Made by a program: the position numbers and the translations under genes. Of a DNA stretch of 64,000 bases, positions 8,401-39,559 are shown piece after piece (the first letter of the stretch is position 1; every line of letters begins with the position of its first letter). The stretch is from positions 1 to 64,000 of the forward strand of contig QPGO01000118.1 in the NCBI GenBank assembly GCA_008632985.1, given 5' to 3'. The notes below the pieces were generated by a model. It did not search any database, was not told the origin of the DNA, and saw only the letters and a program-made list of their open reading frames with translations. This DNA is from Psammoneis japonica. Lineage: Eukaryota.

Positions 8401-8471
8401 CCATCAGAGATGGAAACAGCAGAGGACAGTGTCACAACCGACGATCGTCTCCAATCGAGCGTCGCTCATGT

Positions 8472-15628: not shown

Positions 15629-16060
15629 TGCAGCATGCATGCAGACAAAAGGTCATTTTTGTCACGACCTTTGTGACATTTAAACTGCAACACGTCGCCG
15701 TGATGCTTTAACTCTCATCAGCAACTGTGTGTTGCACTCCTCCCCATGTGTCACGCGCAGAGCTAACGTGCACTGACACTGCACGTTTTTGGCGGAACAG
15801 TGTGGGCACGCACGAAGGAACGTGCAGAACTGCACAGAGTTTTGCGCGTTCGACAGTGATCAACGTTGCTGCAGACAACTCCCACTCAGGGTTTCGAACC
15901 CCTGGCCTCCTGCCCAGTGGTTGCGATGTGCCACTCCGCCATGAATTCACAATGCAGCATGCATGCAGACAAAAGGTCATTTTTGTCACGACCTTTGTGA
16001 CATTTAAACTGCAACACGTCGCCGTGATGCTTTAACTCTCATTGGCAACTGTGTGTTGCA
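15629..16060 (-). mobile_element. TRIM-like non-autonomous LTR element (432 bp, 108-bp LTRs) nested in copia gag
   Basis: Direct repeats 15629-15736 and 15953-16060 (TG..CA ends, one CA/TG difference); minus-strand PPT ggggaggag (15737-15745); probable 4-bp TSD cacg/caca; removal restores the gag frame (P-T-G-P). Confidence 0.8.
15878..15947 (-). promoter_or_regulatory. tRNA-like Pol III internal promoter (A box and B box) inside the TRIM
   Basis: A box TGGCGGAGTGG (15941-15931) and B box GGTTCGAAACC (15900-15890) in a T-arm-like stem cagggg-ttcgaaa-ccctg, with tRNA-like spacing. Confidence 0.6.
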
Positions 16061-19000
16061 CACAGGACCTGCTACATTGACTGTGACTGACTTGGCAACT
16101 GCACTCAATGCACACGCGTCGAGCCATGCTCCGCCTTCTACAGCTTCTGCCAAGACATCTGGAAGTGCTGCATCTTCCGCAACATCGAAGTGCCTCTTCA
16201 ATCCGAGCACACTTCCTGCAGACGTTCATGCACGCTACGACCGCAAAGAAGACGGAAAAGTTGCTCTTCAGAGCTCTCTCGTCCCTTGCGACCATGGACT
16301 CCGTCACTGTGTTGATGCATCCGATCGTGTCATCCTTGACGATGGTGCCCTTTTCATCATGAGCTTGACTCCTGATCAGAAAATGCTGTTCAGAGAACCT
16401 CCTGCATGTCATGACGACTCTCCCCCTGGGATGCGAGCATGGCACCAAAATCTCCAACGTCACGCCTTTGACTCAGGTTGCCACATGCATCCCCTGTGGT
16501 GTTTTGCTGAGGATCATGGTGGTGAGAAGGGTTTTGAGATCGGCAATGGCAAGGATGATGACTTGCCTCAACGCATGTGCGTCCACTGCAAGGAAGCTCA
16601 GAGTTCTCTCCACAAAATCCTCTCCAAGTTGGATGTGTTCCCCAAGAACAGCAAGCATCATCGGATTGTTGCATCGTGCCACGGCAACGGATGCAAGGCT
16701 CTAAAGCAGATTGTCCACGAGAATCACCCTGCCTTTGATCATGATGCTGCTGGACTTGTTGATTCCCATCCCACCCAAGGCAATCGATCTTCAATGGACT
16801 GCCACATGATCTTCAATGATTTCCTGCAGCTGCGTGCCCACATTTTTGATGCGGACTCTACGTTGAACGATCCACGGGAGATGACTGTCTTCATCAAGAA
16901 CACTGAGTGCTCCAAGTTCTTGTCACGTGCTGCCAGAGATGAACGGAAGTCTCCAGCTGTGCAGAAGAAGTGCACGGATGCACAGATTGTCGAGACTCTC
17001 TCTGTGTTCCTCCACCAACCGGATGGTCCATCCCTTCCCACTCGCACGACGCAATCCAACCCAGCCGCACATGGAATCGAGCAGATGCTTCCACGCGACG
17101 CACACCTGCCAATGTCAACTCCACCCAGATCCCTGAGATGCCCCTCCGTGAACCAGTTGATGACTCTGCCACTGAAGATCCTGGCACAGAATCTCCACCT
17201 CCAGACACCTTTGATGCTCTTTGCAACGAATTGCACGAACTCGAGATCCCATCTACGGACGAAGATCGAATCCTTCACCATGTGTGTTCGGCTTCAGTCT
17301 ATAAACTGAAAGTCACTCCGCATGAAGCCTCCAAGAAACCATGTCTTGTCTGCTCCGGAGAGCATTTGTTTGATGACTGTCCAGTCCTGAAGAATGACCC
17401 GTACATCAAGGGCTTCCACATCCATTTTTGTCAATTCTTAAAACGGGAAGCAGCTGTGCGTGCTTCTGAGTTCCAAGGACCCCAAGGTTTGCTCCCACCT
17501 CATCATGACAATCCTGAAAATCCGCCTCCATCTGGTGCTCAGCCCTCGGATTTTCAATCGGGCCGTCGCAGCTGGTTTCGGATCTCCGACGCTGCCCGTC
17601 ATCTCCTCACCGAGACAAGACCAATGTCAGTGGGATGACCTTGAAAGAGGGACTGACCGTCTCGTCATCTGCCACTGCAATGCCTCTTTCCTCACAGATT
17701 GACATGGATGCCACCCCTTCCACCTCCACGAAGATGTCATTTGATGCCAACACGTCACCCGACGATGACCCTGCTCCTCAAGAAGCCTCCGTCGATGCTG
17801 CTCATGTTCCGGATCCTTTGGAACAGGGGAGGGAAGACCCAGAAACACCGGTTTTTGAGGAACATGTTGATCTCACCTGTGATGATGTGGCTGTTGAAGA
17901 CAGTTTTGCTGCTGTCAATTCTGTTTGTGTTGCTCCGATCGATCCATGCCAGGCGAATCACTCACCTGAGCCGGAACTGCTGCGATCCACTTGTTCTGTC
18001 AATGGGGTAAACTTTGCTCCGAATGAACGTTGTGCTCAGTTGGATGCAGGTGCCAACATTGCGCGTGCAGGCGACCGTGACCTCCTCCATCGCCACCAAG
18101 ACTTCACTCCATCCCATCCCTGTCCCCTTGCCGTCAACCCGGCCCTTGGCCACCAAGCTGTCCCAGTTGGATTCGGCTGTCTTCGCATCCCTGCAGAGAA
18201 CTCTGATGGCCATGTTGAGGTCTGTGCACACCACCACCCACAGATCCAATCTACGTTGGTCGATGAGCGACTCCTCCTTCGTCAAAATGGTTCTCGTCAC
18301 GCAGATTGCAATGTCGATTGCACTCTCAAGTTCCATGATCTCGGTGCCTGCAAGTTTGTTGCACGACACCGATTGTGCAAGAGTCAGGACATCATTCTTC
18401 ATGGAAAATCGATCAATGGAAAATGTTTTGCTCACCCTCTCATTCTCCCGGAATCTAACGATGAACTGGATGCATCTGTCGAGCGCCTCAAGACCGCTGA
18501 TCCTTCTTTTGCCGATGAGTGTGAAGCGGTCTCTGCGTGTGTGATTGAGACTTGTCGCACCCACCAACATGAAGCTCTTCGTGATGAACGCAAGTTGATC
18601 CCCCGTGTCTGTCAAGATGTTCCTTTCGAGAAGCATGCTGAGAAGAACATTCCTGTCCAGTCTCTCAAGGCCAACACGGAACGTCTTTTATGGCATCAGC
18701 GACTTGGTCATCCGAGTGATCACTGCCTTTGTCATGCCCATGAACATGTTGATGGCATCCCCAAGTTTGCCCACGGAACTTCTCCTCTCGACACTTGTCC
18801 CACATGTGCACGAGCCAAGCAGACGAAGGAACCTGCCGGTCCGAACACTGCTTTTACTGCCACCCAACCATGCCAAGGCCTTGCGATTGATTTTTCCTTC
18901 TCTGGCCCATGCTCCAAGAACTCGGAGCGCACCAAGGACTGTGTTGGATTGAATGGCGAGACTTGTTGGATTGCCATTTATGATCATAAAACGAAGCGTC

Positions 19001-22000
19001 TCCATGGTGCGACTCGTGTCTCCAAGGCAACCCCTTTGAATTGGATTCGCCACTTTCTGGAAGAGCACTCGCCAAAATGTCCAGACAAATGTGTGTTTGT
19101 GGATCAAGGAGGTGAATCATGTCAGAACCCAGAAGTTCGCCGACTCTTCGAGGATGACTTTCATTGTGCAATTCGTCCCGCGGGAAAAGATGCTTCAAAT
19201 CAGAGTGGCCCAGTGGAACGCAGTCATTTGTCTGTTGCCAATGCCATCCAGGCGATGCTGATCGGTGCTGATTTGCCCATCAAATTCTGGCCCCATGCTT
19301 TTCATCATTTCATTCGAATCAACAATGCTGTGCCATCCCGCAGACAACCTGCTGCTCCGATTGCTCTCGCCACTGGTCGGAAGGATGATTTCAAGAACTT
19401 TCGTACGTTTGGTTGTCGAGTGTGGGTGCGTGCGTCGAATCACCGCCCAGCAAAATTTCGGTCTGTCTCTCGCAAGGGAATGTTCTTAGGCCATCTTCCG
19501 GACACTGCCAAGAACATTCTTTGGTGTGATGCTGAGACATCGCGTGCCAAGCTTGCCAAGCACATTTGCTGCGATGAGGGCATGAATGATCTTCCCCACG
19601 ACTCTCTTCCGCCGAATGTGGTTCACTTGGAACGTGCTCAAGATGGCAAGGCTTTACCTGCCGAGACTGAAGAAACCACGATGGATGAATTCCACTTTCA
19701 TGGGAATCCTTTTGCCAAGACCATCAAGCGTGCGATGAAGGGACCATTTGCTGATCCCACGTTTGGACTTTCCTTGGCTACGGACGATCTCTGTCAGCAA
19801 GCATTTGTCTCTGACATTGAGCGTGGTTCTCCTGCTGCGTGTCTTTTCTCCTCTTTGAAGGCTGCCCGTGACAAGATCAAGGGTGCGTGTGTTGCATCGA
19901 TCGATGATCATCCCATGTTCACGGCAGTGGAGGCTGTCAAACGTTTTCAGCAAGTCTGTGATTCTGGCAAGACTCATTTTGAAATTGAATTCGCGCCGGA
20001 ACGTCGCCTGGACTCTCCAGCCCTGCAACGTGCTCTGATGGAACACAACATGTGTGCACCGAGTCCTGATCCTGATGATGAGCATGTTCCAGAAATCACC
20101 AACGCCGACATGCATGCTGTTGCTGCCATCCGCCACCCTGACATTGATTTCTCCAAAACGGACGATGACGATGTCCCTCCGCCATTCTTTGTTGATTGTG
20201 ACAATGGTGTGGTCAACATCTGTGCTGTCTCATCTCACGCTGTTGCTCCAGAGGAACAAGCCTCAGGTGCTTTCACCCGCCATCGCCTCAAGAAGTTGGA
20301 CATGTGGCCTGAATGGCATGCAGGTGAATTCAAACAACTTGACCAGTTCCATGAGTTGGGGATGTTTGGTGCACCAATTGCACGACCCAAGGATGCTGTC
20401 GTACTTCGTCCACATTGGCAATGTGACCTCAAGCATGATGGCACACGGCACTCTCGACAGTGCTGTGATGGATCTCCCCGTGCTGTGTCGATGCTACATC
20501 GACTCTGCTCGACGCACTCGTCCTGTGTTGAGCAGCCTGTCCAATGCATGTTTTTTGCCCTTGCTGCGACCATGAGCTATCCTGTCTTTGGCGGGGATGC
20601 TCGTGATGCCTGTGCACACTCTCCATGACCGTCACACCCCGCATGTGTTGCCACAGACGAGGCATGTGCAACCTGGCACAAGGCTCGGTTTGGCATTGAC
20701 TTGGACAGGAGCATGGTGCTCCCGATGCAACGTGCACTTCAAGGACACCCAGAAGCCGGCGTGCTCTGGGAGACGCACATCAACGGCATTTTGTCTGATG
20801 TGAATCTGCTTTTTCGAAACACTGCTCATGACAAATGCGTCCACTCTGCTGCTTTTGAAGGACACAAGATCTTGCTCCTCCGTCAGGTTGATGATTTCTC
20901 TCTCGCTTGTCCTGAAGAGTCTGTTGCGATCAAGATCTATGACAAGATTGGCAAAGCTCTCCAATTGGAATCGGAAACCTCTCCGCCGTTCAAGTGTCTT
21001 GGCATGATTGACGAATTCAATGGTGTGGACATTCATCAATGCGATGATTCCATTGGCACCGCTGTTCACAGCTGCACAGATCGGGTTTGTGCCTCGCATG
21101 GTTGGTCGACACCGACGGACGAGGAACTTGACGACGACCACAAGGCTGCGCCACTGCCTGTTGACTCTGTTCGCGAACTGTGTGATGCTGTTTTGGCCCA
21201 GCTGAAGGAACCCCGGAGCATGCGGAACTACAACAAGCTGCTGGTTTTGGCTGCCGAACTCTTCTTGGCGAATTGTTGCATGCGCACATTGTCTGTCGAC
21301 TGGACATTGGGCATGCTGTCACTGCTCTATCCAAGTTCTCGACCTGTCCTGCTGTGGTTCACTATGACGTGCTCAAAGGAACATGCAAGTGCCTTCGACG
21401 CACTGAACATTGGGAATTGAACTGCAGGAAGCCTGCCCGAGACTCCAAACCACCCGCCCACCCCTTCGAACGTCTCACTCCGGACCCGACCTTGCCATCG
21501 TTCCCTTGTCCTGCATGTGATCATCAACTTGTTGCTTTCTTGGATGCTGCTCATGGCAATGACCTCCGCAACCGTTGTTCTACGACTGGCTGTGCTTGCA
21601 TGTTGGCTGGTGCTGCTGTGTCTTTTCGGTGCAAGACCCAATCGGTGACCACTGCGAGCTCTGCGGAAGCTGAATTTCATGCTGCTGGAACCACTGCCAA
21701 GCATGTCCCATGCCTTTGTCACGTTCTACAAGACCTGGGCTTCCCTCAGACGGAGCCAACCCCATTGCACATTGACAACGAATCGGCGATCAAGATCATC
21801 AATCACTCGATCCCGACTGAGCGATCCCGTCACATTGAGGTTCAGTTTTTTGTGATCCAAGAATGGAAGGAAGCGGGCAAGATTGTCACGAGACATGTTC
21901 CTGGCATTGTCAACCCTGGCGATGACCTTGCCAAGGCCCTTGGCTGGGTGCTGCACGCTCGCCACGCTCGACGCATGATGGGACACTGCTGTTGACATTT

Positions 22001-22874
22001 TTTTCCGCGGTGGCCTCCCTGCTGCACATTGCCCTCTTGTTTGATGGCATGTTGGGCATGGACACTTCTCGTGTCCCATGTCCAGTCTCTCTATTTTTTC
22101 CTCACATCATCCCTGTTCTTTGGTTTGATCTGCACTGTTCTCTGTGTTGAGACATTGCAGATCAGGGGAGGGTGTCAGCCCATCTGTGCCTGTTGCATGA
22201 TGGACAGACTGGATGCGGATGATGGCTGGACCATTTAGATGGACGAGCAGATCTCTCTGAGATCTGCTTCTCACTTTCTCATCTGCTGGCACTCGTGTCA
22301 TCACAGTCCTGGCACTTTAGGGAGTCTTTCATGCCTCTGTCACTGTCGACCTTCGGCATTCTGTCAGCACTTTTTGTCCCAGTTGCACCGGCCCACAGCA
22401 CTTGCAGCAAGCTCCACTCTAGAGAGAGTGGTCTCCACTTTTATGCATTGATGCAGCAGACCTGCTCTAGAGTGGCCAGAGGGAGTGCGGTGGTGAGAAG
22501 TGCTTGTAAAAAAAGAAAAGACGTTCATCCATTCTACGGTGTGGCACACCTTGGAGCTGTGACGAAAATTGCTGTCATTGCCACTCTTGGTGCCATGGCA
22601 AGACGTTGTTGATGGAAGCATTTGTTTGTTGGCTGTCTTCAGTGGAGGCTACAATTTCAAAAGTGCAAGGTGAGGACACAGTTCGCATCGATCATTCCTC
22701 ATGAGTGGTGCCAGAGAAAACGACAAAGCTCTCTGCGCACTCAATCATGTTTGCGACAGTTTCTGAAAAGACAAATCTGAACCTTGCAATGGAGTTTGCA
22801 GACGTCAAACGCGACCATTGATTCAGTCCAGCATTCAACCATTGTCTTCAGTTCCGTGCATGTCAGTCACTGGA

Positions 22875-22878
<4 letters not shown>

Positions 22879-22914
<36 letters not shown>

Positions 22915-22920
22915 AAGAGA
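22879..22920. repeat. (GA)n microsatellite
   Basis: About 16 perfect GA units followed by GAAA variants. Confidence 0.95.
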
Positions 22921-23288
22921 GTGGTCCTCACAGTCAAGAGAGAAACAGCAGCAGCCAGAGAATTCAGTCCGACAGTTGCAGTGTGTTGCATTTCTGCACA
23001 CAGTGCATGACCATCAATCTGTGTTGGCAGCTTCAATCAAGCCAACAACACACTTCACAGTGGCGCCAAATGCCCAACAGAGCCAGTGACACCAAGTGAG
23101 CTTCTCCACGACCTCCCAGCATTGCTTTGGCAGACATGTCAAGAGCTCCAAGCCAGCGAAACGATTCTGCATGTTTGCTGAGGCTGGGACGTCTCAGTGC
23201 AGCTGCTCCTCCTTCTCAACGAGACTCTCCACTTGTGAGACCAATCCTCATGGTTGTGATTTTGCCTCCAACACACTGCGACAAAAAG

Positions 23289-24692
23289 TCAAGCGTCCTT
23301 GACGTTGTTCAGCGGCTTCCACCTCCCCGCATTGCACGCAGCCTTGTGATCATTCCAGTCATTTGCAAGGCATTCATTGCTGCAGCACCAGGCAACGTCA
23401 CAACGATTGCACACCATCATGTCTTGGGATTCTTGGCCACAGTCTCGACACTGAGGACCAACATGTTGTAAAGGATCTGTCCCCACAGCGGGAATCACCC
23501 AGATGAAAAAAGTGTTTTCACATGCGTTGGATCAGAAAAAGATGGGAATCATCTTCTTGATGTTGGACACAAAATGATGTCGCCAAAAATGACGGCATTA
23601 AATCACACAGTCGATGACAACGTCAATGAATGTTGTCAGTTCAACAAGTCATTGCAATGTTCTGCTGTCATTCTCATTTTCGGCGGGAAAGCATGTGCGA
23701 GCATGCAATTCTATAGAATGATGACAAAAGGACCCTCATGAAAACACTTTTCTGAAAGTCAATTGTGGGTCGAGGGTGATTCCCGCTGTGGGGACAGATC
23801 CGTTGTAAAAAATCTCAGGATTGCGCCCATGAAGTTGTTCCAAGACATTTTCCATGACACAATCACCACCAGCAGCAAGGAGTGCAGAGGGCATGCCTCC
23901 AGCACGTGATTCAGAGAGTGACGCCATGAGATTGCACCCGGCCACCTGAATTCTGTCGTCGCTCGCGAAGCATGCCATTGTGGCAAGAATGGTCGGGATT
24001 CCACCACAGCCGATTAATTCACAAGCAAATGATGACACAAGGAAGTTGTTGGTGCAGAATGTGTTGCACTGCAATGACTGCAGGAGATGCAACGCATCAT
24101 GGCATAAAAGCGTTTGATGCAACTCTTGGCGAAAACTGCTCCTCACATTTTTCAGCACCTCCACAGCCACACGGACCCCGCCAGCTTCGCGCATGGCATT
24201 GACGTGATTGTCTCCAGATGAGATGTTCAACAGAATGAGTGAGCACCCAAAGCATGCCATCACCTTGTCCTCGTCATTGTCCAACGGTGCTTGCCCGACA
24301 AAATTGCTCATGGCAGCAATTGCGGTCGGAATTCCGTCACTCTCTGCAACAGCTCGTCTGGCTCCATCACTGTGGCCTTCTTTTGCAGCTGCAAAAAGCA
24401 GATTGACACCCAAGGATTGAATGGCTGGAACCTGTGGATTCTTCTGCATTAGAGCGATGATGGCATTCATTCCACCTGCTCATGCAAGAGCTGCAACGCA
24501 GCTGCGCCCTTTGTGCAAGTCGTCGCACTCAACAAGGTCCAAAAGATGCAACAAAGAAAGACGAGCCCTTTTCACGTCATTGTCATCTGACACCATACAT
24601 CTGCACGACAACAAGTCAGAGACCAGATGTGAAATCACTTGATGGGGCTGTGGCTTGCCTTTGGCTCTGTCGCTGCGGCTTTTCTTCCCCAT
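23289..24692 (-). pseudogene. ARM-repeat-like protein with C-terminal MYND zinc finger, TA-eroded and interrupted by a MITE
   Basis: MGKKS start at 24692; GGIPTILATMACFASDDRIQVAGC-type ARM-like units; MYND CRDC..CNRC..AWCCSNECL..DW..HK..C with canonical YC changed to CC. Confidence 0.75.
23473..23801. mobile_element. MITE, 329 bp, perfect 28-bp TIRs beginning GG, 8-bp TSD (Merlin-like structure)
   Basis: ggatctgtccccacagcgggaatcaccc at 23473-23500 and its exact reverse complement at 23774-23801; gttgtaaa at 23465-23472 and 23802-23809. Confidence 0.9.
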
Positions 24693-24910
24693 GGTCTCGA
24701 GTTGAATGCGTTCTGGTCGATCGCCCGCCCAGTGTGTGGGCATGTTCGTCCATCTGTCCGTCATCGGCATGAAACAAATTCAAGAATCAACGGGAATCAT
24801 TCGGGTCCTGAGAGTCATCATGTAGAAATTGTGCAGGAGAGCACTGAAAATGATTGTCATCAGTCTGTCCATCCATCCGTGTACGAATGTCAACTTCTCG
24901 GGAAATCAAT

Positions 24911-24983
24911 TGAAATGCTGTCTGATTGACGGCATTTTGATTCACACAGTGAAGGCCAATGCCGTCAATCAGACAGCATTTCA
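24911..24983. repeat. Perfect 26-bp inverted repeat with 21-bp loop
   Basis: tgaaatgctgtctgattgacggcatt (24911-24936) and aatgccgtcaatcagacagcatttca (24958-24983). Confidence 0.9.
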
Positions 24984-25151
24984 GTTCAGTTCCCAAAAAG
25001 TTGTTAGCTCCAATCACTCTCTCGTGTGACATTGTGCGCATTTCCACACGATTTTGTGTTTTTCCTCATGCAAAATGTCAATTGTGACCCACGCGACATT
25101 TTCGAATGATTCCTGTTGCTCACATGTCTCGTGCATTGCAGCATGGCTGCA

Positions 25152-26045
25152 TCATGAGGGCTTTCAGCAAGAAGGGTGCCAAACCCAGTGCAAGCCAGGT
25201 GAGGCACAAATGCAGAGCTCCCTGGTGGCTGTGAGAGCCAGCCACACAAGGAGCTGCTCTGCAGCCACACTCTGGGGGAGCTCACGCGCTGCACTCCTGG
25301 ACCAGCAGTCCCCCTTTCTCTTCTTGGCTTTTTGTCCAAAATCATCTAAAATCTGTTGTCACTGGAAAAAGCACACCACCCTCTCTGCAACCCCCAGATG
25401 TGCAGTTTCACAGGCAGCTCCAAGTGCTTGTCTGTGAAAACAAAGGAGGCTGAAAAGAGAGCACACTCCTTGCAAAAAACAAAAACAAGAAGTGCAAAAA
25501 CGACACACCGTGGGCAGATGCACACCACAAGGAGATCAAGAAAGCCTTCGTCCTGGCCTCAAAATGCTCACTTTCTCACTTTTGCTTGCCCACCCATGTC
25601 CTCTGCTCAAGAGGAAGCATGAGACAAAAGTCAAGATGCACCAGCATGATGCTCCTGTGCTGCAATTTGTGGTTTCTCATGAGGCATGAGGGCTTTGAGT
25701 GCAGGGGGTGTCAAACCCAGCATGAATGGTGCCAAACCCAGCACACAAGTGAGACGAGGCACAAAAGTGCAGTGCGTGCCAAGTTTGAGGGCAGACCAAG
25801 AGCACTGCACACAGAGCTTTGCCTCTTTTCTTTTGGCTCTTTTTTCAGAAACAACCCACGGTCTCCATTGTCATCACAAAAAGACCTACAAGCCACTGCA
25901 ACCCAGATGTGTGTGGTTTTGCGAGCATCTCCAAGCTGGTCTCTGAGGAGAAGACAGTGGCCAAACATGCACAAAGCCATCAAAAATGAGGAGGAGCTCA
26001 AGCAAGAAAGCCTTCAAAATTCTCATTTCTTTGCTCTTGCTTGGA
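25152..26045. repeat. Diverged tandem duplication with period of roughly 500 bp
   Basis: Shared blocks catgagggcttt..ggtg(c/t)caaacccag, ctgcaacc(c)cagatgtg and caagaaagccttc recur in the same order. Confidence 0.6.
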
Positions 26046-27150
26046 TTTGAAATTTGACTTGGGCCACTCTCAAGCATGCCCTGGTGGAGTTAAGAGCAAA
26101 CACTCCTTTCAGGAAGCAGTGCCCCTCTGACAAACAGCCAGAGCATGCTCCACCCTCTTACACTCAACCTCCTCCTCTTGACATCTTTGGCACCCAACAA
26201 TCTTGCACTGTCAATTGCTGCACTTGCACTTGTGTTTTCAAGTTTGCAGCATTCTTTTCTTGTTTGCATTGGCAAAAGATTGTGCACAGCTTGGTGCAAC
26301 TCCCACACACTGCTGCAACAACTTCTTGTCCACAGCTTGTTGCATGCTGCCCTCTGACACCCACTGCATCAGGTGCCAAACACTCAAATTTCCATTCTTT
26401 GTCATTGCTGCCATCATGGCACCTGCTGCCCTCTGCTCAAAAACTCAAGCAGACCCACAGACTGCTGCTGGCTGGCCCAGACTCAGACAATGCTTCAAAT
26501 CTTGTTGTTGTTTTCACTGCAGAAATCAACTTTGGACACCTCACAGGACCAGTCTGCTGGCATTTTCCTCATCCAACTCTTGCTGCCACAAGTGTGGCAT
26601 GTGCTGCTTTGGCACCTCCACTGCCAGCCACACCCAGCCACTGCTGCAGAGGATGCTGTTGAGTTGCCAAGGCCAGTGTGTTGTCACCACGTGTGTCTCC
26701 TCATCATTGGCTTGAACCAGATCTTGTCTGCCTGGATCAATTTGACACTGCAGTGAGCTGCAGCAATGCCCTCACCAAAGCAGAGCTTGGTGAAAATGTT
26801 GCTCAACTGTGCACACTGCCTTTTGCAAGCTCTGGCTGTCCTCTCTGGTTGTGCTCCTCGACCTCGCATCTCGGACTCCTCTGTGTGCTGTGAGCGGTGT
26901 CCTCTCAGATGTGGCAGCGATGATGATGCTCCACGGCCCTCAGTTCACCAGAGGATCTAGACCCTCCTGGTGTGGGGCAGGGGGTCTTGGTGATGACTTC
27001 ATTCCTGGCAGATGCAGGGATCATTCATCGCTGTCCAACAAGGGAGAGACAGGACCACTCCCCGCTGTGTTGGTGCCAGATTGGGCCAAATTGAAAATGC
27101 TGACCGCACGCTCTTCAAAAACAGATTGCAGCAAAAAATCGATCAAACCC

Positions 27151-28256
27151 ATGGCCGATCCCATCATCATTGCCGCTGTCAAGGGTGGAGGTGCAACCTT
27201 TTGTGTTGCAGTGGCAAAGGTTGCAGAGCAGACACATGAGATTTTGCATCGGCACAAAGTTGACTCGAGTCAGGACGACCCTCAAACAACCTTGGAGGAA
27301 TGCGCTCGTTTCTTGATGCAGCACAAACCCAATGCAGGGTGTGACGCATTGGGCGTTGCATGCTTTGGTCCGGTGGGTCTGAATCCATCCAACAGCAAAA
27401 CACATGGATGTGTTTTAGGAACATCTCCGAAAGAATCATGGCGTCATGTCAATCTGCTTCAACCCCTCATCAATGCATGTCACGGCGAAAATGACCCACT
27501 TGCAGCACGAATCGAAACTGACATGAATGCACCCACCTTGGCAGAACACAAGGAGCATTGCAAAACACACTCTTCTGACAGCATTGCATCCTTGGCCTGT
27601 GTGACGGTTGGAACAGGTGTTGGAGTGGGTCTTGTGATTCATGGTCAATGTGCACACGGACGAATGCATCCAGAGGGTGGTCAGGTTGCGGTTCAGCCAC
27701 TGGATGGAGATTTGTTTCAAGGACACTCATGGGGAACCTCCAAGAGTCCCTGTGGTGGAAAACACACGGTCGAAGGGATTGCCAGTTCCGTGGCACTACG
27801 GAGCGGCATGAACAAGACAATGGGACAGCAGGCACGAACCGTTCTGTTCTTAAAGATCTTGCAGATGACCATGAAATTTGGAACCACGTTGCCAATGTGA
27901 TTGCCAATCTCTGTGTGACGCTGTTGTTGACAACATCGATCGAGCGCATTGTTCCAGGTGGTGGTGTTTTAAAGCGCCATGGACTCTTGACCAAGATGCA
28001 ACAACGCACGGTTCAAATTTTGAACGGATGCTTGGAACCACCTGAAGACATGTCAGAATTGATCTCATCCAGTGAATGCGGCAACAATGCTGGTCTCGTT
28101 GGAGCGGTGGTGCTAGCTCAAGGGGCGCATTTCGAGGACAAGGCGGAGAAATCTAAAGGAGGCGGCGACTTTGTAGCTGGTTTTGTGCATGGATTGGCTG
28201 CAGGTGCTGCTCTCGCAACTGTCGCACTGCTGCTCCGGGCAAAGCGATCACAATAG
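27151..28256 (+). pseudogene. ROK-family fructokinase, TA-eroded, frameshift near 27798
   Basis: KGGGATF, CDALGVACFGP, ETDMNAP, SLACVTVGTGVGVG, HPEGG, VEGIASS, NAGLVGA; expected Tyr positions appear as C/H. Confidence 0.85.
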
Positions 28257-28573
28257 CGTGTAATGTAAAGCTTTCTGTTGTGATGGTGGTATTCTTCCTC
28301 TTTTACGACTCTCTACTAGTAGAGAGTAGAGGCCCTCTGTTGCCCTCTCTAGTGGTAGAGAGCTGCTGTACCTGGCATTACTCTATCGAGTAGAGGCGGA
28401 AGATCATCCCATGAGCATATACATTGGATATTCATACTTGAGGTATTTTTATGATACGTATCTTTCTGAAATCTTCCGATGTCTGATATCGACTATTTCC
28501 GACCCCACCTACTAGACTACGGTACCCCACGCAACGCATCGCACACAGTTGTGAGAATAACGATGACAATGCT

Positions 28574-30208
28574 ATGATGCAGTACATCGACGCGAACGCG
28601 GCAGGGAGTCAGACGACAATGCCACGCCGAAAAGGAAGCATGAGATTTGTCGCGGTGTTACTGTTGCTATCAGGCTTCATTCAGAAAACGCATACGTGGT
28701 GCTCACTGAATCCGAGATGTTGTCGCCAACATCATTCATCAAGAGGTTCGTGGCTGCCGTTGGAGTTGGGAGGCATGAATTATCAACTAGAAAAAGATTC
28801 TATTGATTCCACTCATCCTTTGGAAGACCTTGCACGCGATATGGCGGTAAACGCACTCAAAGGGGTATTCAGTGGGAAAAGCAACAGTACTGTAAGCGCA
28901 GAAAAGGCTCTGAAAATAGCACTAAAATCCATAGCAGCTGAAAGTTTCACCTGGCAGGACCGTCATTGGATACGAGCACGGTTGTCGAAACTGATACTGG
29001 GTACATCGATTATGAGACTGCATCATGAGTACCTTTGGAATGCAACAGTTGAGTCCGAAAGAAGGTCCGATAGGGGCAAGATCCGATTCATGGTCGACAC
29101 CCAAGCGCTCTACATTGAAAACAACAATGCATTCCCTGAAATCCAAAGGCTAAACGAAACAACGAAACGTTTATCTATACAGTACAGCCTACCGCTCTTT
29201 TTTGTGGAGAGTCTTGTAGATCAATATGGCGAGAAAGATACCGAGCAGCTATGTCGAATATTCAACCGTCCCGGTCCAATCACGCTGAGATGCAACTCTT
29301 TGAAATGTCCGTCTGCGGATGCTCTCGTGGAACGACTTGAACAAGAGGAAGAAATTATGGCTGCGCCTCTACAGAGTGTTTATCTAGCAACGGTGAACGA
29401 CGACGATTCGTCCTGGACGCCTCCCGCACCATGTAGGCCTATCCGATTACCGGGCCGTCCATGCAAACGGTCCGTTTGGTCGATGCCGAGTTGGAAAGAT
29501 GGATGGTTTGAAGTACAGGATTTGGGTTCTCAGCTCATAGTGCAAGCCACCGAGGCAAAGGCTGGTGAAACCGTGGTTGATTACTGTGCCGGAAATGGCG
29601 GCAAGACACTGGCTCTGGCTTCGCTCATGCACTCGACCAACACAAGTAATGAAGAGTTAAGCGTCATTTGGGCGCACGATGTAGTACCCGAACGGCTGGC
29701 ACAAATACGTGGAAGCCTACAACGAACTGGATTATCAAATCATCCCAATATCCATATCCATGCAACCACCACCATGAATGAAACAGACGGCGTGGCAGAT
29801 GTGGTGCTGGTGGACGCTCCGTGCTCTTCCTCGGGTGTCTTGAGGAGACGACCAAGTCACAGGTGGACCATCACGGACCAAGATGTAAGCGTCACATTTC
29901 CAGAGCTTCAACTCCAAATTTTACAGCTAGCATCCAAGCTTGTAAAGCCAAATGGTGGGCGACTGGTTTATGCGACATGTTCCATATGCAAAAGCGAGAA
30001 TCAAAACGTCGTGGAGGCATGGGAGAATCTTAACAAAAATGGTTTGTGGGATCGATGGGACTTCAATAAAAGGGAATGGCCAACTCAGGAACTTGGGCAT
30101 CATTGCCGAGCACTCTGGCCTCATGTTCATGATACCGACGGATTCTTATTGCTCGGTGGAGACGAAACTGAGCACCACTCTATCTCGATTTTTTTCCGCA
30201 CAAATTGA
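28574..30208 (+). CDS. RsmB/NOL1/NSUN-family RNA m5C methyltransferase
   Basis: FEVQDLGSQ, VVDYCAGNGGKT, VLVDAPCSSSG, LVYATCS, HDTDGF. The true end is probably DGFFIARWRRN* at 30171 if one T is missing near 30146. Confidence 0.9.
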   Translation: MMQYIDANAAGSQTTMPRRKGSMRFVAVLLLLSGFIQKTHTWCSLNPRCCRQHHSSRGSWLPLELGGMNYQLEKDSIDSTHPLEDLARDMAVNALKGVFSGKSNSTVSAEKALKIALKSIAAESFTWQDRHWIRARLSKLILGTSIMRLHHEYLWNATVESERRSDRGKIRFMVDTQALYIENNNAFPEIQRLNETTKRLSIQYSLPLFFVESLVDQYGEKDTEQLCRIFNRPGPITLRCNSLKCPSADALVERLEQEEEIMAAPLQSVYLATVNDDDSSWTPPAPCRPIRLPGRPCKRSVWSMPSWKDGWFEVQDLGSQLIVQATEAKAGETVVDYCAGNGGKTLALASLMHSTNTSNEELSVIWAHDVVPERLAQIRGSLQRTGLSNHPNIHIHATTTMNETDGVADVVLVDAPCSSSGVLRRRPSHRWTITDQDVSVTFPELQLQILQLASKLVKPNGGRLVYATCSICKSENQNVVEAWENLNKNGLWDRWDFNKREWPTQELGHHCRALWPHVHDTDGFLLLGGDETEHHSISIFFRTN

Positions 30209-30574
30209 ATATGTCGAGACAACCACTGAGCCTGTCAATAGCGATGCCATGCATCATCAAATTCACTTTATGCTGAGCCTACCTACTTGTATCGACGCAT
30301 TGCTGACATTCGACAAGCTTTCTTCGTTTAGCACCCGCGACGGAAGCACCACGCTCCGTTGTTTGATCTGCGATCCGTTTGATGTCTCTCTACTCCGGGC
30401 TTGCTAGTGAGACGAGAACGAAGGGCGGAATTTAAAGAATTTTGGCAAGCGTTGCGAACATTGCACACAAGGATTTATAAGTCTGTCAGGATGTACAAGC
30501 TGCGTAGAACGCGTGTTGCCATGCGTGGTCAACAGCCTCCGAGTAATCTTGACGGTGCGAACTCCGCCGTTAAG

Positions 30575-30967
30575 GGGGGTCATCCCCGCGTTTATCCTAA
30601 AATTACCGTTGCATTTGAATAAGGTTTTTTATAGTGTTTATTTTTGAATACAAGAATTATTCATAGTCACACCCGATCGCGCACGAAAACGAGAACCATC
30701 ACCACCGCGACCGAAGCACGACGATGATGACAATCATCGACATTTCTCAAAAACGTAGTTTGCCGTCTACCAACTTTTCATGTATATACAATCTTTGATA
30801 CATAACAAACATAAAATAAATGAGAGTTGGTAGACGGACCACCTCCGTCACAGACTTATGGCTTGTTGTTTTCACCACGGTGAAGCACGGTGAAATTCAG
30901 GAAAAATCATGCAAAACACGAGCTATTCGGCCGAATTCGAGCTAAAAAAAGTAGCAACCGACCACCC
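30575..30967. mobile_element. Possible Kolobok-like MITE flanked by TTAA
   Basis: ttaa-ggggggtc at left and gaccaccc-ttaa at right (short TIR, 1 mismatch); internal inverted repeat ccgtctaccaact..agttggtagacgg at about 30764-30837. Confidence 0.4.
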
Positions 30968-32639
30968 TTAAAGTGTGTAAGTTTATTTCCATTTTACACA
31001 TGTGTTCGTAAAGCAAGAGACCGGACACCGACGACTCCTCATTTTTTCAAGGGATCGCGCATCGCGCATCATTCATCAAAGCACCACACACCATGATGAT
31101 CGGAGCGCCGCTTGTTAGACTGTTGACGATCCTTTCAACAGCACCAACGCTGTCTGCCAGTCTTTGCCTTCACACACAAACAGCTCATGTTGCTTTTTCG
31201 AAGGCAAGCAGCCAATTGTAAGGTGAAAAAAGGATTTTGCATTGACGCCACGGTTCGAGGCTCATTGTCGCTCTCTGTCGCAATCGAGTTGCACCGCGCT
31301 TTTGTTTCGGCATCTCGCTCATTTTCTTTGACATGCTCGTCTTCACAACCATTGCAGAGAAGCTGTTGAGCAACGCATCACCCCCATGGATGAACAATGT
31401 CTCACAGTTTCGTGTCGGTGTCGACACCATTTCTTTTCAACTCATGTTCTTCCTCACATCGGAGCGGGGCTGTGGTGTGTCCTGCACTCTCTTTTGGACT
31501 GAACCAAGCAAGCTGCAGTTGACACTTTCACAAATGATGACAACTGCAATGTGCAATGGGTTGGACATTGACGTCCATGACCTTGCCGAGTGCCGGTCAG
31601 CAGCACTCCCTCGTTCGGGGACTGAAAACTGGGGCAAATCTTGGTGACGTGGAAAGCATGCGATTGGAATGTGAGCAAGGAGGCTGGAATGTTGTGCAGA
31701 CAACTCTTGAGGCTGTGTGCCAAAGAATGGCATGTTTGCATTTAAAGCAGTGTTGATGCATCATGCATTTGCAGTGCCGGCATGACAAACAAACCAACAA
31801 CGTCATTCTCCGTCTCTGTCTTTCCCATCTGGGTGGTGTCTCATTTTTGATTCTTGGCCAGTGATGAGGGGCAATGCATGAAATTTTGGTGCTTCTCTTG
31901 GGCTTCAAGTGATGGACAATGCTTTGGATGAGACGCTTGCATCATGTGTTTTGCGTCACGCGTGTCCTTGCCAGCGGGCGACCCCAAAGTGGATCATTGG
32001 CATGAATCAGCACTTGTCGAAACACATGACAATTTGGCAAACTGCAGCAGCACACATCATCACTCATCGTTGCAACAATCAATCAGTCATTGGGTTGATT
32101 GGCAATCAGCGGCAGATTTTAGAGCTGTGACATTTGAAACTCCATTTCATCTCTGTCTTCATCCACGTGCGCCACCATCACATTTCGTGCCATCGGTTGT
32201 CCCCCCTCCATCACGTTTCGTGTGCCGTCTGTTTTCTCCCCTCCATCACGTTTCGTCTTTGACGCATCTGTGACATTTGTGCATGGATGTTTGTGAATGA
32301 CAAGTTCGTCCCGTCAGAAGCCCTGCGCAGACTGCCGCAAAACGCAGCACAAATTTTGACAGTGTTCGTGCCACGCATGGCAACAGGCTCATGCGCAGAT
32401 TTGCACCGGAGCTTGCACATCCTGACAGACTCATAAATCCTTGATTGCACATGGGTTTCCCACTTTGTTTTACTTGCGATTCATGCGTGATGGCTGGCAT
32501 CCATTGGAGCTCTCCCGAAGTTGGGGCGATCCACGAAACTTTGAAGACTTTGAAAGATTCCACATTCCATGACATTTCTGTAAATTGTTCTGTGTGCAGA
32601 GCTCGTAGGTTGTTGGCACTTTTTAAACAAGGGGCAACA

Positions 32640-34150
32640 GACAAAAGTTCGAACAAACATGTTGTGTGTTTGAAGCTTTTGAACATTGTTCGAAGTGTTC
32701 GAATTTTTGTTGCAAACACACTGCCCTCCAAAGATTTTGATTTGAGTCACTTGTCATTCGAACTTTTCATGTTGCCCTGTTGGTCACTTCGAACTCATTC
32801 GAACAAAGTTTGAACTTGTTCAAACAAGTTCGAAGTGTTCAAACAGTTGAACACAAGCTTTTTTGCACCGACCCCAGTGGCATTCTACATTGCATGCCAG
32901 AATTTTTAATTGTTTGTTCAGTCATTTGCACATCCCCAGCGCGAGCCTAGTTGCACTTTTGTGCAACGGTGGACTGTTTTGGGTCACAGTCATCATTTCG
33001 GTCATTTCCACGACAGTTGCGGAAAAGTGCAACTAGAGCCAGCAATTTCTTAGGTGCCGCACGAGCCTGCACGCTCCAAAATCGTGTTGAAGGCTGCAGA
33101 ATTTTAGTCATGCGCATCAAATGTAGCCCACATGTAGATTGCACGCATTTGTCAGTGCAAACTGGTTGAGTTTTTCTTCAACTATGACCATTTTCAGTGA
33201 TTTTTTTTGCAATTTTTGGTTGGTCTTTGGTGAGCTGTGATGAAGACAGCTTTGATTGTTTGACAAGTTGTGACCCACAGGCCCATTGATTTAAAGACAA
33301 TTGATCGTAGATGGGTGATGGAAGTGTCAAATGACCGGGACTGTTGACATCTGCAAGAAGGTGAAATCCTTGTTGCATTTTTCTTCAACTAGAAAGCGCG
33401 TGCTGGGGACATCATTACGAATTGACAACCACCGATTTTTGGCACGCGACACCACCACGATGACACGTTCCGTCGAACGAGTTCGGGCCCACCCGGAACA
33501 GTCACCAAGCCATTTGGGTGCAGCTGCATCAATGAGGTGCTTGCAGATCATGTGTGTCTCATTGGATTGGCAATTCTTTGTGGTTGACAAACAAATGACG
33601 GCAAAGGATTCACGTGTTGTTTTGTCGTGCCTTGGCACAGAAAACTGGCGCAGGCCTGCTCTGAGCCACAAGCACGTGCAATGAGCTTGCAGCACATCTC
33701 ACACTGCCTGCACTTGTCACTTCGATTGTGCGCACCGCATCTCATCATCTCATTGATGCACCGGCACCGGCAGAAGAGAGCACAAAACAACAACGTGAGA
33801 CAGATGTCATGCCGCATCATGCGTGCACTGCTGTGCCAGCAGTGCATCATTCGGCTCGGCTGCGGATGTCATCGTGACATCATCACTCATCTCCTGCCTT
33901 GCTTTCATTTGTGAGTTGCAAACTTCGAAAGTGTTCGAAGTGCTTCAAAGTGTTCGAACACTTCGAACAACTTCGAACACTGACACTTCGAACAACTTCG
34001 AACACTTCGAACTTTCTTTGGGGCAGTGTAAAGGGCAACAGAGAAAGAAATTTTACAATGTTCGAAGCTTTTGTCCATCCTGCACGAGGTCCACGTAGAG
34101 ATGTGTTGACAGGAATTGGGAATCTCTTGAATGTTTTTCGAAACTTCGAA
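32640..34150. repeat. Two clusters of TTCGAA-based short repeats (about 32640-32845 and 33920-34150)
   Basis: Repeated ttcgaacac/gtgttcgaa in both orientations. Confidence 0.75.
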
Positions 34151-36099
34151 GTTTCCTGGATCGCCCGGGGCTCGTTCATTAGACTGGGATGAAGTGGGTG
34201 ACAGAGAGGGTTGGGAGCACTGGTGGCGGCGGCTGTTCCGAGAGAGAGGCAGGGGTTTCCATCTGTTCAGGGCTCGCATCAGCTTCCGGAGCAGTGACAT
34301 TCACTGCAATGGTGGCTTCCGCCTCGATTGCATCCTCTGCCGTGGGCGCATCGTGAGGCACCGAAGTGTCCTCTGCCGCTGCGTCACCAGCAGAAGCAGG
34401 GTCAGTCTCCGCTGGGGGAGGAGAGACGGGGGAGTCGTCGGCTGACATGGTGACACAGCGGCCTGGAGTGAGGACAGAGTGTCCTGCCAAGAGGATGCGG
34501 TTTTCGAATGGGTGCTGTTGGCAGGGGCCATGGTGAGCGACAATGAAAATAAAAATCACTGTTGATCTCCATGCAGGGGCAGCATGCATCGGATCTCTGT
34601 GGCACGCACCCAGGGAGATCACAATGTGCGTAGAAGGCACACTGATGCCCATGCCAGCAGCCGCAAAAACAAACAGCAATGGCGTGAATCAGCACCCGAG
34701 ACGCAGACGTCATTGTCTTCGATAGAGCGGCAAAGTTTACGATGCAAACGCTCTCTGCCGGTGTCGTCGACAACGAAACGAGAGGAAAATGTGTTGTCGG
34801 CAGTGGCAGAGGAGCCTTGCTTGCATGTCTGTGTGAGCGTTGCTCACAACCTGACAGAGATCCCTGTGTCTAAGCAGGAATGACATGATCCACCAAGAGT
34901 GGGGCATTCAATGAGAATCGGCGAACGTTGATTCACTCATGGTGTCACATGCAAGGCGTGTCAACCACAGGCACACAGGAAGGTGAGATTCATGCGCGAT
35001 TGCATCAGTTTGGGCACTTTTAAAGTCGGGCTTGCTCTCGTGACAAGTGGGAATGAAACAGCGCATTCAAGTTTTTGGCCAAGGAACAGGAACCTGAAAG
35101 TCTTGACCTGAGCCATGTTTTCCCTCTCGGGTGGTGAATCTTGCTGTCCTTGTGTCGCACAGCAGTGAACAACTTAAAGGCCGGGTGGGACCAACATTGA
35201 GGAAACCAACGTCAATGTGCAGGGAGCGGGTGGGACGCTCAATGATTTGTGTGATCTGGCAGTGACACGGTCATCAACTACGACCAAGAAAGAAGGTGGA
35301 AACCACCACAATGCGAAAGACAACAGTCACGTCGCAGACACGAACCGAGGTTGATTTAACCTCAACATGGTGACTTGCGAGCTTCCGGACTGTGCGACGC
35401 GCTTCAATCATTTTGTGCTGAAACAAAGAAGACACAAGACAACCTGCCCTCATGGTGTGTCACTCAAAAGAGCACCAGGCCTGCTGATGCTGGCAACAAA
35501 GCGTCCAGTGCCCTCTGCCACTGCTGCAGGCAGAGGACGACCCACACGATCCGTCTCGATCGGTGCGCCCCGTCGCCGTGGATTTGGAGCCATCACTCGC
35601 ACCTCTCTCTGGGCATGCACGGATTCGGAGCCACCGCCTTGCGCCTCTCTCTGGACGCGGAACGACACTCACAGAGCCGCCTTTCTCCTCCCTCTTTCTT
35701 GTTTTTTCTGTTTGTTTTCAGGGATGGCTTCGATGATGGATGGATGATGAATCACAATGACCAATGCATCAGATGATGTTGTCTGAGACATGCAACAGAC
35801 TTGTTCTTCCATGTCATTTGGTTCGCCAACAGTTTCTTCCGTCTTCTTTTCTTGAACGGCTCCAAGCAGGGTCGCCACACACTGGACAGAACAAGAATGT
35901 GAAGCTCCATTTCCAGAGCCAGAATCAGGTGCGTCCTTTCCTGATTCACAGCAAACACGACAAAGTGTGTGGAACGATTGATTGAATGCATGCATGGCAG
36001 TGCCGCAGGGCTGCGAGAGGACTGGGCCTGGGTGCACTTCATGTCGACAAATGGAACAAGATGCACTTAGAGAAGTTGACGCCTGGTGGAGTGGTTCCT

Positions 36100-37646: not shown

Positions 37647-38124
37647 CTTGAATCATCTTGCTGCTGGTTTCATGCGAGCGGGTTGACGAGTCACGAGCGA
37701 GTCACGGGTGCAACCTCACTTCCAAGTTCCCACCCCAGCTGAACGGAGAACGGAGAGACCATCACCACATCATCTGCACATGTGTCTCTGAAGTTCACAA
37801 TTTCTGTGCGATGACCCTGATTTTGTTTGGTTTGCCAGACCCAACAGTTCATGTCCCCAATGCGACTCACACTGACACTGGAGCCCCAAGACATGTGCTC
37901 AGAACAGGATTTGCAGTCAGGCAGAACTTGATGATCCAATCATGAGCTCCACAGAAGCACAAGTCAACCCTGATGTGATGTGTGTGCACAAGTCAAGGCT
38001 GTGAAGCAGCCAGATGCTGCTCAGTTCAAAGAAGCCATGGTCAAGGAAATGCAAGACCATGCTGCCCAAGAGCACTGGGAACTCTTTGAGAAATTGGACA
38101 TTTGGCCAGTTTGTTGAAGCAGCG

Positions 38125-39170: not shown

Positions 39171-39243
39171 CAAGCAGCAGTGAGCACCTCCATTTTGTGG
39201 AAAAAAAAAACATTGAACAATTGAGTTGATGGACATGTTTCAA

Positions 39244-39559
39244 TGATCATGTCTCTGGTGCCGCAAACCCTGTTGTCGTCCAAACAAACTCTCAGTGCCT
39301 CGCCCCCCTTTTTGCACATGTGGGGAATTTGGTTCTGCCATTTGTTTTCTCCAGAAATTTGTGCTCAGTCATTTGGCATGGATTTGGCAAAAATTCAGCA
39401 GATTTCAAATTTGTGCCAAGCCTGCATCATTTTGCTCAGATCACATTTCCCAACAAAGAGAATGAGTGAAACAAATTCCTCATGTGAAAAGTGAAAAGCA
39501 AGGGGGTGAGGCACTGACGTTCTGTTGGGAAGACAAGGTTTGCGGCAGAGATGTGATCA
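39244..39559. mobile_element. Degenerate MITE-like foldback with ~65-bp imperfect inverted repeats
   Basis: tgatca..tctct..gccgcaaacc..tcagtgcctc versus gaggcactga..ggtttgcggcagagatgtgatca; TSD not resolved. Confidence 0.5.

Follow-up and report, generated by a model that had tools for sequence, protein, structure and literature searches.

Introduction

Hypermutation directed at the dinucleotide TpA has been described once before, in a 2026 preprint on viral inserts in a chlorarachniophyte genome (10.64898/2026.01.13.699255). According to the main text of that preprint, 231 of 302 new mutations in accumulation lines of Bigelowiella natans fall in two integrated viral regions, and nearly all of these change TpA to CpA or TpG, at a rate roughly 1000-fold the background. 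The principal target, silent and single-copy, is an insert from a nucleocytoplasmic large DNA virus (NCLDV) with a Rho of 0.45. The genome contains 124 TpA-poor clusters in all, reverse transcriptase (RT) and DDE domains are enriched among TpA-poor genes, and an ADAT2-like adenine deaminase is proposed as the agent (10.64898/2026.01.13.699255). Neither diatoms nor an analysis of flanking context feature in the main text. At title and abstract level outside the subscription literature, no report of TpA depletion in diatoms was found; what did match concerned fungal repeat-induced point mutation (RIP) or unrelated uses of "TPA". Here we describe 64,000 bp of Psammoneis japonica contig QPGO01000118.1 (positions 1 to 64,000 of the forward strand; hereafter the window), in which a fructokinase gene of the ROK family, a MYND zinc-finger gene and the DNA around them appear to have been eroded by a comparable process.

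As far as the preprint's main text allows comparison, the window resembles B. natans in A:T to G:C change at TpA that yields CpA or TpG, in a footprint of low TpA with high CpA+TpG, and in kilobase-scale block structure; independence of copy number is perhaps shared as well. Three features by which hypermutation of the B. natans type can be recognised are found: transitions confined to TpA, discrete kilobase blocks and mobile DNA as a target. The organisms differ, B. natans being a rhizarian alga while the proteins of the window are diatom-like. So does the extent, since the window is near saturation (observed over expected ratio, o/e, of 0.09-0.14 across 73% of its length) as against a Rho of 0.45 in the NCLDV insert. 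The targets here are a long terminal repeat (LTR) retrotransposon, a miniature inverted-repeat transposable element (MITE), unannotated DNA and two host-type genes, rather than giant-virus or virophage inserts, and the window adds CpG decay and a hierarchy of tetranucleotide contexts (survival from 0.006 for ATAT to 0.80 for TTAA).

RIP in fungi is also related in kind. It too degrades transposons by irreversible transitions in a dinucleotide context, leaves skewed blocks and can harm neighbouring single-copy genes. Its machinery resembles a cytosine methyltransferase, and it operates before meiosis. However, RIP converts C to T (CpA to TpA) and raises TA, whereas in the window TA is destroyed (o/e 0.11) and GC content is slightly up. 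RIP also needs duplicates, whereas here DNA at unique sequencing depth, which is only a hint of copy number, is equally affected.

We consider it probable that a DNA-level, TpA-specific A:T to G:C hypermutation, carried near to saturation in a 13.3-kb block, struck the ROK and MYND genes together with their neighbours. Under this proposal about 85% of the TAs in the block would have been turned into CA or TG; the same process would have hit a copia retrotransposon, the MITE and unannotated DNA alongside the two genes, and CpG decay of the methylated-DNA type would have run beside it.

Two dinucleotide-specific processes separate the blocks

TA-poor blocks and TA-normal islands were defined by a two-state segmentation with self-chosen parameters and a 500-bp dinucleotide profile. 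The segmentation assigns 46,649 of the 64,000 bp (73%) to TA-poor DNA, in five blocks of 4.4-13.3 kb that alternate with five normal islands of 2.7-5.5 kb (Table 1). TA o/e is 0.09-0.14 and CA+TG o/e 1.44-1.63 in the individual blocks (0.11 and 1.56 with all TA-poor DNA pooled), against a TA o/e of 0.49-0.74 in the islands. GC content is slightly higher in TA-poor DNA (0.504 versus 0.48). The interval 23289-28256, to which the initial annotation had drawn attention as depleted of TA, belongs to the block at 14829-28113 and holds 25 TAs in 4968 bp (o/e 0.081; CA+TG o/e 1.69). The depletion is real and far beyond chance.

After strand-symmetrisation, the loss of TA (0.0361 per bp) and the loss of CG (0.0121 per bp) together equal the gain of CA+TG (0.0482 per bp), while the remaining dinucleotides differ by 0.002 to 0.01 per bp between block types, GC and AT most. 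Since the two losses sum to the gain, two dinucleotide-specific processes separate the block types: a dominant conversion of TA to CA or TG and a weaker conversion of CG to the same products. CG o/e is 0.68 in TA-poor blocks and 0.95 in normal islands. Ordinary CpG decay resembles the dominant process in that a palindromic dinucleotide is lost to TG and CA in silent, repeat-rich DNA; it is found in the same blocks and matches 5 of 21 mismatches in the ROK gene. It differs in its share of the CA+TG gain, which is no more than a quarter (0.0121 of 0.0482 per bp), and cytosine methylation cannot touch TA. Two sub-blocks, 25001-27000 and 38001-41500, have lost nearly all CpG (o/e 0-0.3) besides TA and reach a CA+TG o/e of 1.85-1.92.

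The two block types also differ in gene content, as judged from a Pfam scan of 122 stop-to-stop open reading frames (ORFs) of at least 120 aa across the window (30 + 92), with six more scanned separately. Normal islands carry intact-looking genes for an NSUN/RsmB methyltransferase, a lactonase, a 3'-5' exonuclease, a phytochelatin synthase and a rhomboid protein. The matches in TA-poor blocks are copia-type gag, integrase and RT domains (17518-21417), ROK, a MYND finger, weak SAP and AAA matches, and a weak low-complexity SR-25 match at 3912-4340. None of the 122 scanned ORFs yielded a viral domain. Because TAA and TAG are almost missing from TA-poor blocks, long but meaningless ORFs with 0-3 tyrosines run through all six frames there.

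The ROK fructokinase looks like a recently conserved gene that has been erased

The kinase reads in two frames (Table 1). Its best relatives are 62-64% identical, and those with names come from the pennate diatoms Nitzschia, Cylindrotheca and Fistulifera; a library-wide HMMER search returned no closer one. It was compared with 17 diatom-type homologues, a column being called conserved when at least 14 of the 17 share the same residue. The initial annotation had read a Tyr to Cys/His signature from the segments CDALG, THGC, LAEH and SLACVTVG. All four are present, the first two within AGCDALG and THGCVL, and each marks a tyrosine position of the homologues. At all seven majority-Tyr columns the window has Cys or His (codons TGT, TGC, CAT and CAC), and its 367 residues include no tyrosine at all, compared with 7-11 per homologue (n = 17). 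The alternative that orthologues simply share these residues does not hold, as the 17 homologues do not have the Cys or His.

The remaining damage follows the same pattern. Among 163 conserved columns, 142 match and 21 do not; 11 of the mismatches are undone by a single reversal of CA or TG to TA, 5 by a reversal of CA or TG to CG, and 5 are of other kinds. Two mismatches fall in EGGGT and HPEGGH, which we take to be catalytic or metal-binding motifs of ROK enzymes: E11K is of the CpG type (E in 17/17 homologues), while H178Q is one of the five unexplained changes (H in 17/17). With a broken frame, these two substitutions and every conserved tyrosine gone, the sequence is not that of a functional enzyme. 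TA o/e over 27151-28113 is 0.068, compared with 0.105 in the copia element.

The NSUN gene downstream, scored in the same manner against its own 17 homologues, served as a control. Of its 166 conserved columns 142 match, and the 24 mismatches comprise 1 of TA type, 2 of CpG type and 21 others; six of eight majority-Tyr columns are kept. The two genes differ by Fisher's test in TA-type mismatches (p = 4e-4), in TA-type and CpG-type mismatches together (p = 2e-5) and in tyrosine columns (p = 0.007). TA-type and CpG-type changes, with one apparent 1-nt deletion, would explain the greater part of the damage to the kinase. As there is little ordinary divergence beyond the two targeted processes, the kinase looks like a recently conserved gene that was quickly erased, not an old pseudogene. 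The claim that host-type genes were erased by the same process as the transposons is therefore borne out for the fructokinase by its TA-type spectrum and frameshift; for the MYND gene, composition and breakage speak for it.

Repeat pairs place the process on integrated DNA

The block is anchored on a Ty1/copia-type element (Table 1). Both of its LTRs are flanked by the same GCACT target duplication and therefore belong to one insertion and were identical at the start. They now agree at 177 of 195 positions. The 18 mismatches consist of five CA-versus-TG doublets (10 nt), three sites with TA against CA or TG, three of CpG type and two other transitions; there are no transversions, and 13 of the 18 nt derive from TA. 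Each CA/TG doublet is best read as an ancestral TA converted independently in the two copies, once on each strand. By a rough estimate from these counts, about 80% of TAs in each LTR (range 0.6-0.87) would have been converted while about 0.5% of ordinary sites changed, a rate ratio in the hundreds. Because LTRs of a single insertion have diverged by doublets, the process acts after integration, on both strands. Two further repeat pairs behave alike: 3824-4042 and 3356-3575 differ by eight doublets, two TA-type and three CpG-type changes and one transversion, and the 109-bp terminal repeats of an insertion nested in the copia element differ by one CA/TG doublet alone, with both of their TAs in TTAA context kept.

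Enzymes that edit nucleic acids in transit also produce clustered transitions with a 5' neighbour preference and inactivate mobile elements, ADAR by A-to-I change in RNA and APOBEC by C-to-U change in cDNA. They differ in acting before or during reverse transcription and with strand bias, whereas the process in the window is post-integration, affects both strands and extends to DNA that is not retroelement. That ADAR-like hyper-editing of transposon RNA, fixed by reverse transcription, produced the signature is scarcely credible to us. An A-to-G change with a 5' U/T preference does recall the neighbour preference of ADAR (discussed in the main text of 10.64898/2026.01.13.699255), and the largest element in the block is a retrotransposon. 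Two LTRs copied from one template, however, already contradict this idea by differing at five doublets and three TA-versus-CA/TG sites. Moreover, a DNA-type MITE, unannotated DNA and two non-retroelement genes share the signature, and both strands are equally affected, in interleaved order.

Modified bases can cause systematic miscalls, so base-calling or assembly error at modified TA sites was weighed as a source of the pattern, as was an origin in intrinsically TA-poor foreign DNA. Either is very improbable. Over stretches of 1181, 830 and 423 bp the TA-poor sequence is reproduced without a difference by contigs of a public run (depth about 29-33), although the assembly itself may derive from that run. 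Miscalling would treat identical repeats alike, yet where one copy shows CA the other has TG. Intrinsic composition, for its part, cannot give Tyr to Cys/His at 7/7 conserved sites.

The nested insertion carries a T-arm-like GGTTTCGAACCC motif, and ARAGORN called no tRNA within 15629-16061. An empty-site joint (15624 to 16063) in one DNA run, X1, indicates that copia copies lacking the nested insertion exist.

Context and strand rules suggest a possible reader of double-stranded DNA or a possible base mark

Survival of each NTAN tetranucleotide, taken as its frequency in TA-poor blocks relative to normal islands, depends strongly on the flanking bases. It rises from 0.006 for ATAT through 0.019 for ATAC/GTAT, 0.056 for ATAG/CTAT, 0.07 for GTAC, 0.10 for ATAA/TTAT, 0.19 for GTAA/TTAC, 0.20 for both CTAC/GTAG and CTAG, and 0.45 for CTAA/TTAG to 0.80 for TTAA. 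The order of sensitivity is thus RTAY (R, purine; Y, pyrimidine) far above the mixed contexts, and these above YTAR. In our own arithmetic, an additive per-strand model in which the palindromic classes predict the non-palindromic ones performs reasonably well. Effects of the -2 and +1 positions could not be separated from the tetranucleotide gains, which amount to 0.5-1.9 of the losses; gains and losses mismatch because CpG decay yields the same products. On the + strand CA and TG are balanced within +-0.045 in every block, and they are randomly interleaved, the fraction of same neighbours being 0.475-0.51 where 0.5 is expected. By these two measures no strand bias and no processive runs were seen in any block.

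A preference for palindromic RTAY sites would suggest an agent that recognises double-stranded DNA, or else a TpA mark inherited much as CpG methylation is. The chemistry we propose is adenine deamination by a DNA-acting deaminase with a 5'-T preference, for which R-T-A-Y would be the most and Y-T-A-R the least sensitive context. A different origin would be a heritable base mark at TpA, such as 5-hydroxymethyl- or 5-formyl-uracil or a modified adenine, that decays passively by mispairing with no dedicated mutator. A mark of this sort would suit the palindromic target and the perfect strand symmetry. The RTAY over YTAR hierarchy would likewise suit an enzyme that reads double-stranded DNA, and the same blocks show CpG decay (CG o/e 0.68 versus 0.95, and 0-0.3 in 25001-27000), as epigenetically marked DNA does. 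In dinoflagellate DNA, 5-hydroxymethyluracil favours TpA and TpC sites. Loss of the TpC type is absent here, however: TC/GA and CC/GG frequencies are similar in TA-poor and normal blocks. Conversion of about 80% of LTR TAs against two ordinary differences in 195 bp would be very fast for passive decay, and the B. natans bursts, confined to only some lines, are read by the authors in the preprint's main text as regulated activity (10.64898/2026.01.13.699255). We therefore regard passive decay of a mark as unlikely, although not negligible, and continue with a dedicated mutator as the preferred agent.

The process probably follows a domain with a defined edge

The block ends next to the NSUN gene, which had been described as pristine some 320 bp downstream of the kinase. 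The gene is indeed intact and TA-normal, with its first in-frame ATG 317 bp after the ROK stop codon; TA o/e is 0.59 in its body and 1.16 in the intergenic DNA (28257-28630). It had also been noticed that TA reappears in the last part of the fructokinase. Four TAs do lie in the final 143 bp, at 28114, 28154, 28174 and 28254, in the contexts CTAG, CTAA, GTAG and ATAG, but we read this tail as a graded edge and not as normal DNA. Three of the four stand in contexts that also survive deep inside TA-poor blocks, and the fourth is the ROK stop codon itself. There is no sensitive-context TA between 24882 and 28254, while from 28254 to 30984 such TAs occur at 0.03 per bp. The absence of sensitive TAs from 140 bp has P = 0.015 at the normal rate, and the presence of three refractory TAs has P = 0.04 at the TA-poor rate. 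As both values are low, the tail of the kinase received an intermediate dose. Grading thus extends over roughly 150-300 bp, and the edge comes to its end at the stop codon of the ROK gene, which is also the start of the NSUN gene unit.

Within the NSUN gene itself, the final ~20 residues (30146-30208) disagree with all 17 homologues, with mismatches at eight consecutive conserved columns, as might result from a small intron or a different 3' end.

Copy number was approached through the summed contig depth in run X1, which is not a copy number and serves only as a hint. Depth is 39-67 over 25407-28074 and 40-78 over NSUN, compared with 1,700-3,700 over the copia element and ~39,000 over the nested insertion, the highest value in the stretch compared. 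Across the ROK region, individual X1 contigs of 1181 and 413 bp show 0-1 differences from the window. These values hint that run X1 holds no second copy of the ROK region that is at least 90% alike, and that most of the affected DNA in the block is unique. Of this unique-level DNA, 25407-27407 has no Pfam match. Between the window and its copies in X1 there are 325 transitions and 83 transversions, among them CA/TG doublets at 24584/5 and 25372/3 in unique-depth DNA, a hint that alleles or copies are still diverging by the TA to CA/TG route. A second run of the same sample, X2, gave contigs over the TA-normal stretches 11400-14734 and 28075-31399 and none over 24073-28074. Half of its contigs in the stretch compared continue into unlike sequence, as those of spliced RNA would; it is not used as evidence on expression or chromatin.

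The initial annotation offered two explanations for the loss of host-type genes, a RIP-like sensing of duplicates and a spread of mutation from adjacent transposons. In its fuller form the first holds that a homology-triggered mutator senses repeats and leaks a few kilobases into unique DNA, or that both genes were duplicated. The block is indeed anchored on high-depth copia sequence (~1,700-3,700, with the nested insertion at up to 39,000), further repeats lie at 23473-23801 and 24891-25003, every point in the block has a repeat within ~2.7 kb, and an X1 joint (23431 to 23835) may reflect a second, MITE-free copy of MYND type. On the other side, 25407-28074 is at unique-level depth, its contigs of 1181 and 413 bp showing 0-1 differences (again a hint only). 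TA o/e stays at 0.03-0.10 across 25001-28000, at distances of as much as 2.7 kb from any high-depth repeat, and shows no gradient. Depth is 989 at position 30540, in the TA-normal stretch 30500-31009 located 3' of NSUN, and repeated sequence can therefore stay TA-normal. The main B. natans target, according to the preprint's main text, is single-copy (10.64898/2026.01.13.699255), and both direction and context of the mutations are the reverse of fungal RIP. Sensing of duplicates accordingly finds no support here, and we judge a homology-triggered mutator quite improbable. Spread from adjacent transposons comes closer, although a domain-wide process with a defined edge and no gradient fits better. 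Given unique-level depth, the lack of a gradient and a TA-normal repeat, targeting by domain is favoured over homology. We propose that the domain would be one of chromatin or expression, namely silent, cytosine-methylated DNA.

The MYND gene, its MITE and other features of the window

The second host-type gene lies on the - strand. Its identification as ARM-MYND stands for the MYND finger, which has a Pfam match, while for the ARM part the evidence consists of a sub-threshold Pfam match (ARM_LRRK2, E = 0.078) and language-model feature matches to ARM clusters (0.95-0.96). No homologue of the ARM-like ORF was found at E <= 0.001 among proteins of 122-389 aa. A host-type nature of the gene is plausible. 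The tyrosine of the SMYD2 MYND finger (FYC) is Cys in the window (WCC, codon TGC) in an alignment with the PDB structure, a single instance. Three lesions break the gene: an in-frame TGA, the MITE that sits between the MYND and ARM-like segments, and a one-base frame offset between the parts that persists with the MITE removed. Contigs of runs X1 and X2 contain the joint 23431 to 23835, which skips 403 nt. A MYND intron was considered for this joint and rejected, since its ends are CT..AG on the gene strand and the frame is not restored; it may represent another copy or allele of the gene without the MITE.

Between the copia 3' LTR and the MYND gene is a (GA)n microsatellite (22866-22926), at which X1 reads appear to be cut. 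In the spacer on the other side, 24891-25003 forms a 113-bp near-perfect palindrome with 55-nt arms that are 84% complementary and a 3-nt loop; its X1 bin has a depth of 4,762, and a short foldback or a repeat of MITE type is its probable identity. Two features lie in or reach into other TA-poor blocks. Three successive long open frames (477, 479 and 659 aa) on the - strand at 5533-11015 have no Pfam match and could be remnants of a single large gene or element, or stop-poor noise. The 3'-5' exonuclease frame (52856-53962, - strand) crosses a block edge at ~53122-53174 into TA-poor DNA, so that either its true stop has been lost or its 3' end lies inside the mutated domain.

Table 1. Features of the window, with positions, strand and supporting evidence.
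Feature	Position	Strand	Evidence
TA-poor block	1-11494	.	two-state segmentation
TA-poor block with ROK and MYND genes	14829-28113	.	TA o/e 0.09, CA+TG o/e 1.61, CG o/e 0.61; segmentation and 500-bp profile
TA-poor block	31010-43258	.	two-state segmentation
TA-poor block	48712-53121	.	two-state segmentation
TA-poor block	56072-61282	.	two-state segmentation
Ty1/copia-type LTR retrotransposon, including target duplications	14712-22371	+	Pfam gag_pre-integrs, SH3_retrovirus, RVT_2
copia LTRs (TG...CA)	14717-14910 and 22173-22366	+	LTR alignment
5-bp target duplication GCACT, intact	14712-14716 and 22367-22371	.	flanks read
Insertion nested in copia, 433 bp, 109-bp terminal direct repeats	15629-16061	.	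repeat alignment
MYND zinc-finger segment, stop 23289-23291	23289-23468	-	Pfam zf-MYND E=1.5e-7, 31 bits vs cutoff 22.7
MITE-like insertion, 329 bp, ~28-31-nt terminal inverted repeats	23473-23801	.	repeat search
8-bp target duplication GTTGTAAA of MITE	23465-23472 and 23802-23809	.	sequence reading
ARM-like open frame upstream of MYND, in-frame TGA 24480-24482	23814-24779	-	ORF list
Unannotated spacer, TA o/e 0.054, CpG o/e 0.24	24780-27150	.	no Pfam match for its ORFs
ROK fructokinase pseudogene, first frame, 215 codons from ATG	27151-27795	+	Pfam ROK E=6e-16; 62-64% identity to best homologues
Apparent 1-nt deletion, frame shift (CTACGG; homologues V-A-L-T-E-R)	27796-27800	+	sequence vs homologue alignment
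ROK pseudogene, second frame, 152 codons, stop TAG 28254-28256	27798-28256	+	Pfam ROK E=5.2e-9
Graded edge of TA-poor block	28114-28256	.	4 TA, CA+TG o/e 1.24, segmentation
TA-normal island: intergenic 28257-28573 and intact NSUN/RsmB-type methyltransferase	28257-30984	+	Pfam Methyltr_RsmB-F E=3e-34
NSUN ORF: open from 28487, first in-frame ATG 28574, stop 30206-30208		+	ORF reading

Weighing the proposal and its implications

Several points weigh against hypermutation of a TpA-targeted domain as we propose it. The frameshift in the kinase is an apparent 1-nt deletion, read from the assembled sequence against the homologue alignment. The argument from single copy is weak, as it uses summed contig depth and not copy number. 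Leakage from repeats and a domain-wide process look alike at saturation, where the longest repeat-free stretch is ~2.7 kb. The normal baseline is imperfect, because gene islands may differ from transposons in their starting composition. Not every repeat pair is as clean as the LTRs: two older pairs (77% and 71% identical) have 13 doublets each and many other changes besides. Among the older pairs, 41459/38109 combines its 13 doublets with 27 other transitions and 26 transversions, and 2989/1754 has no doublets and 14 transversions. The mutated sequence would read alike for a deaminase and a base modification, and is compatible with more than one order of inactivation, silencing and hypermutation.

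More tentatively, and with rather more doubt than confidence, we suggest that diatoms may possess a mirror image of RIP: a homology-independent, chromatin-domain-targeted conversion of RTAY to CA or TG in silent DNA, running hundreds-fold above background, that would be an old genome defence shared across the stramenopiles, alveolates and rhizarians (SAR). The suggestion of such an age comes from the same signature being present in a rhizarian alga. If true, the process would stop at the edges of expressed genes and could delete conserved host genes caught in a silent domain.

A saturating case over most of 64 kb of a diatom-like genome would widen the phylogenetic range of TpA-directed hypermutation. 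It would also add ordinary transposons (an LTR retrotransposon and a MITE) and unannotated sequence to the viral inserts known before as targets. The ROK gene offers a concrete example of the cost to the host, a conserved metabolic gene almost wholly lost to the TpA process. The tetranucleotide hierarchy provides a specificity against which candidate enzymes can be matched, while the LTR pair places the action on integrated DNA and the co-occurring CpG decay ties the TpA process to marked chromatin. The blocks carry a warning as well, in that tyrosine-free, Cys/His-rich "proteins" predicted from TA-poor DNA will mislead gene finders and homology searches.

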